64,000 nucleotides of DNA from Eledone cirrhosa (lineage: Eukaryota). The stretch spans positions 35,030,001 through 35,094,000 of the forward strand of contig OZ024760.1 in the NCBI GenBank assembly GCA_964016885.1. The letters are read 5' to 3'. Below, piece after piece: positions 3,362-63,380 of this stretch; position 1 is the first letter of the stretch, and every line of letters begins with the position of its first letter. The notes beneath the pieces were generated by a model. It had not been told where the DNA came from and ran no database searches. It saw only the letters and a program-made list of their open reading frames with translations. The translations under genes were made by a program, and so were the position numbers.

Positions 3362-3717
3362 TTTTTTTTCAAAGAAATTTTTTGATAATCATAAAAGTTT
3401 AAATTTTGGGCACAAGGCCCCAATCTTTTTGGGTGTCCTTTTCGGAAAACAATGTATGTGCGCTTATATATAGTTAACAATAAAATTTTTCCATAAATGG
3501 CAATTTTTAACAAACGGAAATAACAAACCTTTGCGGAGCTCACGATGATACGATTTACTACGTAGGTCGCCAATAATAATAATAATAATAATAATAATAT
3601 AGACATAGAATATTCGAAAATATTCTGTATGTTTATAATAAACATTTTGAAGACCTAATCGCTATAGAATAGAATACGTCACGTATTACAATTAGATTCT
3701 CGATAAAAGCAAGGGAA

Positions 3718-3760
3718 GTAATCTACGCGTTTCATTCTTGTTAGAAATCATCAGGACTAC
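3718..3760 (-). ncRNA. Minimal type I hammerhead ribozyme motif (H1 copy 1)
   Basis: Reverse complement reads GTAGTC-CTGATGA-T-TTCT-AACA-AGAA-T-GAAAC-GC-GTA-GATTAC. Confidence 0.8.
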
Positions 3761-4027
3761 ATATCCAGTGCTTTTATCGAGAATGACACAGCTAGAGACT
3801 TATAGAATACTTAGCTGTGTACAGGAACTGGTTTGAAAGAGCGGTTGCCGGTCCGGCAGAAATTAGAAATTGGAATAAATGCTCTGAAATAGCGATATAT
3901 ATGTGAATATAGACATAGAATATTCGAAAATATTCTGTATGTTTATAATAAACATTTTGAAGACCTAATCGCTATAGAATAGAATACGTCACGTATTACA
4001 ATTAGATTCTCGATAAAAGCAAGGGAA

Positions 4028-4070
4028 GTAATCTACGCGTTTCATTCTTGTTAGAAATCATCAGGACTAC
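4028..4070 (-). ncRNA. Minimal type I hammerhead ribozyme motif (H1 copy 2)
   Basis: Identical to copy 1, 310 bp along. Confidence 0.8.
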
Positions 4071-4337
4071 ATATCCAGTGCTTTTATCGAGAATGACACA
4101 GCTAGAGACTTATAGAATACTTAGCTGTGTACAGGAACTGGTTTGAAAGAGCGGTTGCCGGTCCGGCAGAAATTAGAAATTGGAATAAATGCTCTGAAAT
4201 AGCGATATATATGTGAATATAGACATAGAATATTCGAAAATATTCTGTATGTTTATAATAAACATTTTGAAGACCTAATCGCTATAGAATAGAATACGTC
4301 ACGTATTACAATTAGATTCTCGATAAAAGCAAGGGAA

Positions 4338-4380
4338 GTAATCTACGCGTTTCATTCTTGTTAGAAATCATCAGGACTAC
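4338..4380 (-). ncRNA. Minimal type I hammerhead ribozyme motif (H1 copy 3)
   Basis: Identical to copy 1, 620 bp along. Confidence 0.8.
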
Positions 4381-4688
4381 ATATCCAGTGCTTTTATCGA
4401 GAATGACACAGCTAGAGACTTATAGAATGCTTTTATCGAGAATCTAATTGTAATACGTGACGTATTCTATTCTATAGCGATTAGGTCTTCAAAATGTTTA
4501 TTATAAACATACAGAATATTTTCGAATATTCTATGTCTATATTCACATATATATCGCTATTTCAGAGCATTTATTCCAATTTCTAATTTCTGCCGGACCG
4601 GCAACCGCTCTTTCAAACCAGTTCCTGTACACAGCTAAGTATTCTATAAGTCTCTAGCTGTGTCATTCTCGATAAAAGCACTGGATAT

Positions 4689-58884: not shown

Positions 58885-59722
58885 AAAACACACAAGCAAA
58901 CACACACACACACACAATTTTATACATACACATATATATATATATATACATACACACATACATACACACACACATACACACACACACACACACACACACA
59001 CACACACATATATATGTGTATATATATACATACACATACATATACAAATACATACATACACACATAAATATCAACATATCCATACATACACATACATATA
59101 TATACACAACCACACACACACACATATATGTATATATACATACACATACACATAAATAGCCATACACACATACATATACATACATACGTACACACAATCA
59201 TACGTATATACACACGTACATACATACACAAACATACACACATATATACATACATACGTACGCATGCACAAAAATAGAAATATATACACGCACCTCTACA
59301 TACTCACACACACAAATAAATATAAGAAAAAATATATATAATAATAAAAGACATAAAAAAGAAAATAAAGACTATTATAATGTTTACAGTGATACAGGCA
59401 ACAAATAAATGAACAAACACAAGTGATAAGCAATACACACAAATGCACGTACACATACATACGTAAAAATGAATACATACACACACTCTCACACATAAAT
59501 ATATTTATACAAATACATAAACACATACATATGCATACACAAATACATACACACACACACACACACACACATATACATATATAGACACACACATATATAT
59601 ATATATATATATATATATATACACACATACACACATAGCCATACAATTATACACATACATATACATACATATCACAAACACGTACATACAAATACAAACA
59701 CACACATATATATATATGTGTG
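58885..59722. repeat. Compound CA/TA microsatellite
   Basis: Seen directly. Confidence 0.9.
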
Positions 59723-59776
59723 TAAAACTCATTCTTAGATAATTCATATGAACCTTATTTAACTCTAATATATATA

Positions 59777-61080
59777 CAGGGTGGGGCATAAAAACTGTTA
59801 CAAAATAAAATGCAAATAGTTCTTGAAAAAAACATTTATTTCAAGATCTGACTTCAACAAATAGTAAGTAATATACTATTAAACAACTGCACAAAAATTT
59901 ATTCGAAATGCTTTCCTCTAACTCTCACCACCGCTGGAAGTCTTCTAGGAAAGTCTTCGATGACTGCACGAACAGTTTCCATGGGTATTTTCTCCCCTAC
60001 TTTATTCAGTTTTGATTTTAGAGTTTCAATATTTTGGCTAGGAGTAGAGCAGGTTTCACTCCCAAGAATTGACCATAAAGAAAAATCGAGAGGGTTGAGT
60101 TCTGGTGATGTGGGATGCCACTCTTCCTTACTGATCCATGCATGACAATGGTCTCTACACCACTGTTATGTTATGCAAGCAGTGTGGCTCGTCGCTCCAT
60201 CTTGTTGGAGAGTCCAAATGTCATCGCCATAAACAGATATGCACCATGGCATCAGTGCTCCTTCCAAAATATCCTTTATGCAAAGTTCTTTGTTAATTTT
60301 AACTCCTTGAGGCACAAAAATCAGAGGAGACTTACCTCTTTTAGAAATGGCTGCCCAAATCATCACTGATGCTGGTTTCTGTGTTCTGAACACTTTTCCT
60401 ACACTTGAAGGAATTGATTTGAGACTTTTTGCAAGTACTCGATCATTTTGATGATTGTGAGACTGCTGCACAGTGAATAACTTCTCATCTGTAAAGATGA
60501 TGTTTTGCAGCGTGCCATCCTTGATACAATTCAATAACAGTTTACTTCTGGAGAGCCTCTTTTCAATTGTGGCTGCAGAAAGAAGATCTCTCTTTTGGAA
60601 CTTATAGGGTGACATCCCCAGATCATTTCGACATATCCTCCGCATAGTTCTCGGCGATGTTTCTGTTTCTTCTGCCATTTTTCTCATAGACCTTCTTCGA
60701 TTACGCCTTATTTTTTCCCTCAGACTTTTAACGAGTTTTGGTGTTCTTGAGGTGCGAGGGCGTCCGGATCGAGGTCTGTCTTTGGTCGAGGAAGTTTCCT
60801 TAAATCGATCGATTGTCCTTTTGATCAACATTCTATTGATCTTAAGAATTTTCCCCAGTTTAAATATCTTGGGTGGAGTCAGGCCTTTTTCATGCTTCTC
60901 TATTATGAACTTTCTTTTCAATTCTATGGACATTGCAAATTGTTAATGGAGTAATGTTCTGAAAAATAGTTAATATGGTTATAGTGCATGGATTTGATAT
61001 AAATATATTAGTTATATTAGCAACATAATGTATTTTTAAGTTGATTTAAAATTTTGTAACAGGAATTATGCCCCACCCTG
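59777..61080 (-). mobile_element. Tc1/mariner DNA transposon, DD37D (maT) type, 1304 bp
   Basis: ~30-bp TIRs (CAGGGTGGGGCATAA..CTGTTACAAAAT) with TA on both sides. Confidence 0.92.
59899..60933 (-). pseudogene. DD37D transposase with an in-frame stop at 60166-60168
   Basis: RSGRPRT, FTDEK, QQDGATSH, then after the stop WHPTSPELNPLDF; 37 residues between the second and third D. Confidence 0.88.
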
Positions 61081-61162
61081 TATATATATATTTATATATA
61101 TATATATATATATATATATATATATATATATATATATATATACACATACACATACACATACC

Positions 61163-61625
61163 CACTGAAAATCCGCCTCTTCATTGCTGTAGTAGAGTCT
61201 GTGCTGCTGTATGGGTCTGAGACTTGGACACTGACCAAGAGACTCACTCAGATGGTGGATGGGTGCTACACGAGAATGCTGAGGATGGCTCTGAACATTA
61301 ATCAGTATACACTGAGGATGAAAAACTCAGAGCTGTATGGGAGCATCCCAAAAGTCAGCTCAAAAGTGACACAGAGGAGACTGAGGTTGACTGGACATGC
61401 TCACCGACATCCAGAGTTGACATTGCACTCAGTGCTCCTTTGGGAGCCCCTACATGGACACACTAGAAGAGGAAGACCAAGGTTAACATATGTTGATGCC
61501 CTAAGGACAGACACTGGTCTGTTGGAGATGCAGGATATGGCAGCGATAATGAGGGACAGAGACCGCTGGAGAGAACTCGTCCATGGATCTCGGGAATTTT
61601 ACCCGCCTTAGATAGATAGATAGAC
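61163..61625 (+). mobile_element. 3' fragment of an RTE-clade non-LTR element
   Basis: SVLLYGSETWTLT..LR..RRLR..GH..RGRPR..DR..WR; short (GATA)n tail. Confidence 0.8.
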
Positions 61626-62795
61626 ACATACACATACATACGCATACATACATACTCACATACACATATATACCTACACACACATATATACATACACATA
61701 CGTATATAGACACACACACACACACACATACATATATAACTCAATATATATATATATATATATATATATATATATGAGAAAGAACATAATTATTATATAT
61801 ATATATAAAAAATAAATATTGTATATATAAAAATAAAAATAAAAATAAAAATAAAAATAAAAATAAAAATAAAAATAAAATAAAAATTAAAATTAAAATT
61901 AAAATTAAAATTAAAATGAAAATAAAAAGTTGGGAATACGACAAATAATAAATTAAAAAATATATATTTAGAAAAGGGTATAAATGCTTATAGCAGATTT
62001 AGAGGACTCAACAAGTTCCTGGAGTAAAAGATCAATGAAAATAATCATTAAATCACTATATGTAATGATGCATATACATACACCTATTACATATATACAT
62101 ATACACACACACATGCACAATATATACATACACACACACACACACAAAAACACAACCACAGAAATACACACACATACAATTTCGTATATATATATATATA
62201 TATACACACACACATAGGAAAAAGTCTGACACTACGGCAGAGCTCAAGCCTTTTCTGAGGCATTATATATAACACACACAAAACCAGTATATAAAAAAAT
62301 ACATATACACGCACAAATATACACACGCCCATACACACACATTAAAGTTATATGTACACACATACATACATACACATATATACATACATATGTATATATA
62401 TATATATATATAAAATATATATATATATACATACATATATACACACGTACATACATACATATAAAAATATACTCACACGCGCACAAATACAACAGAAATA
62501 TATAATATATACGATTATATATACATATACAATTACATACAGATAGATATAAACCTACATACACACACATATATACATACACATATCCATATACACACAC
62601 ATATACATAAACACATATATATACATATATATATATATATATATATATATATATATATATATATATATATATATATATACACACACACATATATATATAT
62701 ATATATATATATATATTAATATATATATATATATATATATATATATATATATATATATATATATATATATATATATGTATATATATATATATATA
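61626..62795. repeat. Mixed CA/TA/(AAAAAT)n microsatellite region
   Basis: Seen directly; short unique islands are interspersed. Confidence 0.85.
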
Positions 62796-63380
62796 TTGTT
62801 ATACTTTGGGAGGGTCATGTTGCCAATAAGAAACACGCACCAGTTGCTTTCACTTCAATTTATTATTATAATAAATTTATAATAAATTTATAAATTTATA
62901 AATTTATAAATTTCTGGTTGGTTGGTTCCACAACTAGATAGTTGTTTATATATTGTCATAGTTCTTTCGTCACACACTCTGTGACATCTTCAGTGACTGG
63001 GGATTCCTTTCTTTGTTTCTGTGCCTCTCCTTTGTTCTGTCCTACGCCATTTTTTACACACAGAAACAAAATGGCGTAGGACAGAACAAAGGAGAGGCAC
63101 AGAAACAAATAAATGAATCCCCAGTCACTGAAGAGGTCACAGAGTGTGTGACGAAAGAACTATGACAATATATAAACAACTATCTGGTTGTGGAACCAAC
63201 CAAACAACCAGAAATTTATAAATTTATGAATTTATAAATTTATTATAATAATAAATTGAAGTGAAAGTAACTGGTGCGTGTGTTTCTTATTGGCAACATG
63301 ACCCTCCCAAAGTATAACAATATCGGTTTCAACACACGATTTCAGATAAAGAATCTTGTCAAACAAATTCAGAAACGAAA
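62793..63380. mobile_element. Hammerhead-containing fold-back element H4 (~260-bp inverted arms), within (TA)n
   Basis: 62793-63054 versus 63068-63323 are reverse complements with few mismatches. Confidence 0.82.
63124..63166 (+). ncRNA. Minimal type I hammerhead-like motif (H4); mirror copy on - at 62955-62997
   Basis: GTCA-CTGAAGA-G-GTCAC-AGAGTGT-GTGAC-GAAAG-AA-CTA-TGAC; one extra nucleotide before stem II. Confidence 0.7.

Follow-up and report, generated by a model that had tools for sequence, protein, structure and literature searches.

What kind of machinery writes one short sequence twice, in opposite orientations, into a simple repeat? A stretch of the Eledone cirrhosa genome (64 kb of a 3.0-Gb assembly; contig OZ024760.1, positions 35,030,001 to 35,094,000), which we call the window, raises this question with four elements, H1 to H4, each made of two arms. 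A sequence-only reading of the window took them for non-autonomous ribozyme RNAs that fill breaks in AT microsatellites by priming from both ends. We argue instead that H1 to H4 are insertions whose arms stand back to back, one with a short and one with a long outer end; that H4 is the 3' end of a Penelope-like element (PLE); and that H1 to H3 likely owe their insertion to an enzyme of the PLE type. We put the probability of this reading at roughly 85%. The parts of the four elements are listed here by position in the window (LTR, long terminal repeat).

3572–3598, left target flank of H1: (AAT)9
3596–4428, minus strand, H1 left arm: a non-coding, retrozyme-like unit of 310 nt in 2.7 copies; the outer end is the short site, at unit position 128 after the predicted cut
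4428–5207, plus strand, H1 right arm: 2.5 copies of the 310-nt unit; the outer end is the long site, at unit position 172
5205–5216, right target flank of H1: (AAT)4, the size of a target duplication
55112–55603, minus strand, H2 left arm: 320-nt unit related to that of H1; long outer end
About 55604–55790, plus strand, H2 right arm: short outer end, passing into (TA)n
57071–57166, minus strand, H3 left arm: 96 nt, with a short outer end and one internal jump, without the ribozyme core
57166–58025, plus strand, H3 right arm: a unit of 523 nt that contains a (TA)n tract; long outer end
62797–63053, minus strand, H4 left arm: 3' pseudo-LTR from an autonomous PLE, truncated at its 5' end; the outer end is the short one
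63068–63379, plus strand, H4 right arm: the same pseudo-LTR plus a 56-nt tail (the long end)
63418–63473, H3-family miniature: 56 bp within (TA)n, with the ends swapped (long end left, short end right)

The earlier positions of H1 to H4, and the junction sequences quoted for H1 and H2, were confirmed in the window. H1 lies in (AAT)n, while H2, H3, and H4 lie in (TA)n; H4 is a simple inverted pair. The count of four ribozyme families needs revision. Arms were found for all four, but H1 and H2 are 78% alike over 154 nt, and because these two are relatives, there are three lineages rather than four; also, one arm of H3 has no core.

A motif search predicts a type I hammerhead with a minimal stem III in each of H1 to H4. 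The motifs listed for the window are:

4695–4725 and 5005–5035, plus strand: predicted H1 type I motifs with palindromic stem III
3729–3754, 4039–4064, and 4349–4374, minus strand: predicted H1 type I motifs with palindromic stem III
57631–57661, plus strand: predicted H3 hammerhead motif
63128–63162, plus strand: predicted H4 hammerhead motif

Fold z scores give strong support for H1 (-6.9) and H2 (-5.4) and weak support for H3 (-1.6) and H4 (-1.2). From motif and fold together, the cores of H1 to H4 are predicted ribozymes. Circular folds of the H1 to H3 units are strongly self-paired (z of -4.8 to -8.4). In nearly all of the H2 copies counted, the core reads UUGAUAA, which is a family-wide U3-A8 variant; U3-A8 covariation is among the features of PLE hammerheads described in PMC4209133. 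By eye, the variants that define H1 haplotypes (L115–L134) cluster in the hammerhead at unit positions 276–295, where they fall at N7, in loop II, or at wobble-compatible positions. This placement suggests selection on the RNA fold.

Orientation and outer ends across the genome

We searched the assembly for the cores with tight patterns and found 4149 for H1 (exact 49-mer), 284 for H2 (at most 2 mismatches), 1590 for H3 (at most 1 mismatch), and 1352 for H4. A DNA search with the H1 unit, in which very common words are skipped, came back empty. Among the first 100 listed cores per family (with each run of H1 cores represented by its two outermost, and H2 cores included only where they had a neighbor), we then counted opposite-strand neighbors within 10 kb. 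These were heads-in in 56 cases and tails-in in one (n = 57, p = 8e-16), and the H4 neighbors were heads-in in 16 of 16 cases. The sole tails-in case is two separate neighboring insertions (L034). The proposed arrangement, with the left arm in minus sense, the right arm in plus sense, and the 5' ends inward, thus holds both in the window and genome-wide, and tail-to-tail copies are not equally common.

The association with microsatellites holds up as well. We searched with two patterns for H1 ends in which the flank was almost unconstrained (last base not G) and obtained 94 and 100 matches. By eye, we dropped 11 internal variants and 3 joins to other element parts, which left 180 true ends. 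Of these, 170 adjoin TA-rich repeat, 4 adjoin AAT, and 6 adjoin non-repeat DNA. The four AAT ends belong to two insertions, one of which is the window's H1.

Each arm has one of two outer ends. Measured from the predicted cut, the short and long ends lie at about 128–139 nt and 165–172 nt in H1, and at about 142 nt and 168–175 nt in H2. The distance between the two sites is about 60 nt in H3 and 56 nt in H4, and it spans 26–60 nt across the families. When ends were paired automatically, 73 of 80 pairs combined a short with a long end (25 for H1, 20 for H2, 10 for H3, and 18 for H4, the last being 18 of 18); the other 7 are internal units that were wrongly called as ends. The short and long ends are placed evenly on the left and right (35 vs. 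38). One H1 pair scored as long and short used an internal duplication, and its true partner, in L035, is also short. We inspected 40 further H2 loci by eye, and of the 31 with two arms, 25 have a short and a long end, 1 has two short ends, and 5 have one non-standard end. A separate count of short ends with a 20-nt pattern was discarded as unspecific (970 vs. 212 in the control).

This pattern resembles the ends of PLEs. In the account of their structure in PMC8557442, a tail of 30–40 bp is present at one end only, beside an inverted 5'-truncated copy, and the target-site duplication (TSD) is variable. In the in vitro work reported in PMC11167929, the tail is the stretch between two internal start sites for reverse transcriptase (RT), both strands are cut, and a dimer is predicted. 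The segment by which the long end exceeds the short end is the PLE tail.

The coding element behind H4 and the non-coding H1 to H3

In longer copies of H4, the arms continue into an open reading frame (ORF; copies L045–L054 and L165), which is open for 1167 amino acids in L165. Within the ORF lie motifs for an RT and for a cysteine linker, as well as a GIY-YIG domain. The GIY-YIG domain scores 23.6 bits against a Pfam cut-off of 22.6 (PF01541), and the match to RVT_1 is weak (E = 4e-4, below the cut-off). The Atlas neighbors of the ORF (0.96–0.97) carry RVT_1, GIY-YIG, and HTH_animal, and a sequence search of the PDB with the protein gave a weak GIY-YIG match only (E = 0.42). A CX2-5CxxC motif, in the definition given by PMC8557442, lies between the RT and the endonuclease in the translation, and Neptune/Nematis is a candidate placement for H4.

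The layout of H4 also matches that of endonuclease-bearing (EN+) PLEs. Besides an ORF with an RT and, at the C terminus, a GIY-YIG domain, it has a hammerhead in a pseudo-LTR, a partial tandem layout, an inverted truncated copy, and a tail at one end. In L052, the ORF is flanked by pseudo-LTRs, and in L052–L054 the tail runs on into the beginning of the ORF. Both H4 end sites are within the first codons of the ORF, and the same is true of the anole element. A sister PLE has 62–69% protein identity to the H4 PLE, and the short end is common to both. The window's H4 is a doubly truncated insertion of an autonomous PLE and represents its 3' pseudo-LTR; as the end of a coding RT and GIY-YIG element, it is not the non-autonomous ribozyme RNA that had been proposed. 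ORF fragments of distant RT elements were seen beside an H2 copy (L088:2075–3035) and beside an H1 copy (L033:3864–4945), and they possibly derive from other PLE clades.

For H1 to H3, the idea of non-autonomy survives: they are tandem units with no attached ORF in the loci examined, and H2 mostly has one to two units per arm. They have features of retrozymes: a non-coding unit is repeated in tandem, each unit has a single type I hammerhead (predicted from motif and fold), and H1 and H2 show a TSD of more than 4 bp. As judged from sequence, H1 to H3 appear to fit the animal non-LTR retrozymes. The earlier reading left open whether the RT donor was a PLE or a local Dong or Tx1 element. A PLE is the likely donor class, given the shared insertion footprint, which by analogy likely links H1 to H3 to PLEs. 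The proposed search for an autonomous PLE with shared terminal sequence found none for H1 to H3 among the two PLE pseudo-LTRs compared. A protein search that used the endonuclease region to look for further PLE families scored 150 of 34093 candidates, and those it returned were all copies of H4.

At L103/L168, an H2 arm lies heads-in to an arm of the H4 PLE. We considered this chimera as a link to a partner enzyme and rejected it: both ends are long, and the host element on the left does not resume on the right. A later deletion explains this join, and no further chimera of this kind was found in 40 more H2 loci.

We also looked up the H1 unit among RNA data, and no RNA run that contains it was listed. 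Words of the H1 unit are 96–100% present in runs X1–X6, which carry five different organism labels. Three of four runs examined gave a single closed 340-nt contig with no flank. Such contigs (in X1, X3, X4, and X6) were not counted as evidence of RNA circles, as a tandem DNA repeat gives the same result.

How the insertions arose

Insertions into non-repeat targets show what happens to the target site. Clean TSDs were found in L115 (16 bp), L116 (11 bp), L117 (14 bp), L118 (15 bp), L131 (14 bp), and L109 (13 bp). They range from 11 to 16 bp for H1, the one for H2 is 13 bp (L109), and none was readable for H3. Across the automatic pairs, an informative TSD was present in 21 of 80, as compared to 6.2 ± 2.0 (maximum 11) in 60 flank shuffles; several of these 21 are long repeat matches, not clean duplications. 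We also made the comparison with empty alleles that had been suggested, and found one for L117. A 1851-nt contig from run X2 (depth 6.82) spans L117:30–355 and L117:1853–2163, which correspond to positions 302–627 (left flank) and 5–315 (right flank) in the records. The 14-nt overlap in this contig is the duplicated word, in single copy. The sample behind run X2 carries the empty allele of L117. Because of the 11–16-bp TSDs and an empty allele with one 14-bp copy, the insertion site was likely cut by an enzyme and was not a repaired break; the cut may have been staggered and have left 3' overhangs. The statement that there is no TSD is therefore true of pure repeats only. Among these insertions, the H1 copy at L131 (300–330 and 6290–6320), with its 14-bp duplication, lies inside an element related to H3.

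The earlier proposal was that ribozyme RNAs patch spontaneous breaks in AT microsatellites by homology, with an RT from Dong/R4-like or Tx1/L1-like elements. That so many H1 ends adjoin TA-rich repeat fits this proposal, as do the 0–5 nt of pairing between target and element end at unique targets (L115–L118, by eye). The short ends of H1 and H2 fall on AT alternations of 8–10 nt within the unit, and Dong/R4-like and Tx1/L1-like long interspersed nuclear elements (LINEs) crowd the window. Yet the AT alternations shrink to 4 nt at the ends of H4 and to 1–2 nt at the ends of H3. H3 bypasses its own internal TA run of 71 nt: its ends are about 57 and 117 nt beyond that run, and of the H3 ends inspected no more than two fall within it. 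Microhomology likely tunes the register and does not choose the site, so it is not the determinant that it was taken to be. As for the enzyme, the H4 PLE brings its own endonuclease. A blastn comparison at E = 0.01 matched H1 to H4 with nothing else in the window, and the features expected of LINE-dependent short interspersed elements (a shared 3' end and the same target repeat) were not found in them. Six of the 180 H1 ends are in non-repeat DNA and only 4 are in AAT, against 170 in TA; Dong or Tx1 elements are not supported as donors. With the staggered duplications and the empty allele, break patching is largely refuted, and we consider it very improbable.

Another possibility is that priming occurred at one end only and the cDNA then folded back, so that the first arm served as the DNA template for the second, with an endonuclease trimming one end and leaving the tail. 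PMC8557442 explains the tail by an intermediate that an endonuclease resolves, both arms are always of one haplotype, and the long-end arm is the longer one in 8 of 17 H4 inserts, as this model allows. But in 4 of the 17 (L045, L047, L051, and L062), the short-end arm is longer and has no copy of the tail. (L048 was excluded from this group as it holds part of the tail.) Because the longer short-end arm lacks the tail, neither arm is a fold-back copy of the other in these four, unless they were shortened by later deletions. Also, the two arms have their inner ends at positions in the unit that bear no relation to each other. Fold-back is thus quite unlikely, and this part of the earlier reading, priming from both ends, gains support.

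The inner ends of H1 are scattered over the unit. We rejected the idea that they lie at the ribozyme cut: 0 of 52 are within 3 nt of the predicted site. At 26 inner junctions, the arms overlap by 0–5 nt in 19 cases and by 8 nt in one, and there are short fill-ins in six.

Nearly all units in both arms of an H1 insertion share one haplotype. Four loci have variants of their own that all units of both arms carry; for instance, in L125 they are present in 10 of 10 and 11 of 11 units. Uniform haplotypes fit rolling-circle copying of one monomer circle. The H1 to H3 arrays might instead have grown locally in DNA, by slippage or unequal exchange, from single PLE ends and with no RNA circle, having inherited the inverted form from a founder insertion. 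Local amplification is proposed in the preprint 10.64898/2026.07.22.740005, and at L120, L131, and L036 a few variants recur within one arm without reaching all of its units. Against this, every array sits in a target site of its own, variants private to a locus are fixed in arms of either orientation, and both arms are multimeric, their partial terminal units ending at the two start sites. A coding parent of H1 to H3 was not found. Local growth can coexist in part with the explanation we prefer; as a full account, it seems unlikely.

In our preferred reading, the PLE enzyme would nick both DNA strands about 11–16 bp apart, with the GIY-YIG domain probably making the staggered nicks, and the RNA would be reverse-transcribed from both 3' ends. 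Each DNA end would prime at one of two internal RNA start sites, with the 0–5 nt of pairing tuning only the register. The two cDNAs would stop at random and then be linked by end-joining. H1 to H3 would use the PLE enzyme in trans, and the multi-unit arms of H1 would come from copying round a monomer RNA circle. More tentatively, and at somewhat less than even odds, a dimeric PLE RT works on one small circular ribozyme RNA with two fixed start sites, one per strand of the staggered cut, and rolls from both ends at once. If so, the PLE tail and inverted arm would be a fossil of obligatory two-ended priming, and retrozyme arrays would be its direct genomic record.

Several observations weigh against two-ended insertion by a PLE enzyme. 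On the side of the ribozymes, none of the 75 Rfam matches in the window is to a hammerhead family; two are to snoRNAs, and the others are hairpins of microRNA type that score below the gathering threshold. In the in vitro experiments of PMC11167929, PLE priming required neither homology nor ribozyme cleavage. On the side of the ends, 9 of the 40 further H2 loci (by eye) are single-armed, there is an interrupted copy at L037, one long and long pair is listed on an unplaced contig among the H1 end-pattern matches, and the tails of 56–60 nt in H3 and H4 are longer than described for PLEs. The 20 H1 loci L115–L134 were selected on a single end together with a flank that was imperfect. Gene conversion, a source array that was already homogeneous, or the assembly consensus could also yield uniform units. 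For the empty allele, we infer that the two flank searches hit the same X2 contig, since length, depth, and strand agree and the record coordinates adjoin; runs X2 and X5 are one sample. Finally, H1 to H3 have no similarity to the H4 pseudo-LTR (scores at shuffle level), and their matches to the pseudo-LTR of the sister PLE are TA repeat only.

Relation to known elements, and the rest of the window

The shared rule is the insertion structure already described for PLEs and is not new. The EN+ PLEs of Neptune/Nematis type, as presented in PMC8557442 and PMC11167929, share with H4 an RT with a C-terminal GIY-YIG domain, a cysteine linker motif, and a hammerhead in the pseudo-LTR. These accounts also describe an inverted 5'-truncated copy, a one-ended tail, two internal RT start sites near the start of the ORF, AT-rich targets, and variable TSDs, as seen here. 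Compared with the described PLEs, the tail is 26–44 nt in H1 and H2, primer pairing is 0–5 nt, and H1 to H3 encode no protein. The in vitro results in PMC11167929 include no strand difference in start sites, whereas we counted a strict pairing of short and long ends.

Animal non-LTR retrozymes, in the descriptions given by PMC7229834 and 10.64898/2026.07.22.740005, resemble H1 to H3 in their non-coding tandem units of 310–520 nt with one type I hammerhead each, low GC, strong self-pairing, TSDs of more than 4 bp, and a PLE proposed as mobilizer. H1 to H3 differ in the two-armed head-to-head form, the fixed paired ends, and the targeting of microsatellites. A term search of the main text of PMC7229834 gave no hits for "inverted" or "microsatellite", and the text of the preprint gave one unrelated hit for each. 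Two-armed retrozyme arrays with paired fixed ends were not described in the literature we searched, with supplements and most subscription papers outside that scope. The preprint 10.64898/2026.07.22.740005 proposes retrozymes as PLE derivatives.

We see the gain here as one of mechanistic precision, and no new class: an in vitro assay already exists, for which the insertions supply exact start sites on the RNA, the geometry of the cut, and a substrate of 310 nt. So far, mobilization of animal retrozymes by PLEs has rested on co-occurrence and phylogeny. Here, one genome holds a coding PLE and three non-coding families with the same footprint, strict pairing, an 11–16-bp stagger, an empty allele, and arms that are not copies of each other. 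In the L1 retrotransposon, twin priming also produces an inverted arm with 5' ends inward: a second DNA end primes on the RNA, and there is a TSD. The insertions described here differ from it in that the second start site is fixed, a poly(A) tail is lacking, and two arms are the norm. The origin of the inverted arm and one-sided tail in PLEs is stated as unresolved in PMC8557442.

The other features of the window are:

67–11110 and 46400–54600, minus strand: several elements with endonuclease-RT ORFs, e.g., 50502–52718, which we take by motifs to be L1/Tx1-like
11272–45500, plus strand: non-LTR retrotransposon cluster bounded by (AAT)n, with motifs for an RT and a restriction-like endonuclease; presumably Dong/R4-like, by motifs
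46034–46267, 47849–47970, and 58192–58363: further fold-back hairpins
55811–56130, minus strand: fifth hammerhead family, with its core at about 55945–56001; it shares a TA tract with H2 and is single-armed in the window
58660–58860, minus strand: sixth hammerhead family, with its core at 58741–58779
60166–60942, within 59775–61080, minus strand: transposase fragment between TA tracts, presumably Tc1/mariner-like, by motifs

The longest ORF of the plus-strand cluster has 970 amino acids (27350–30262). The sixth hammerhead family has relatives in L100 and L053, and no opposite arm was seen. The fifth family is heads-in with two different ends in L148 and L068. Finally, the ribozyme repeat families stack inside one another's TA tracts.

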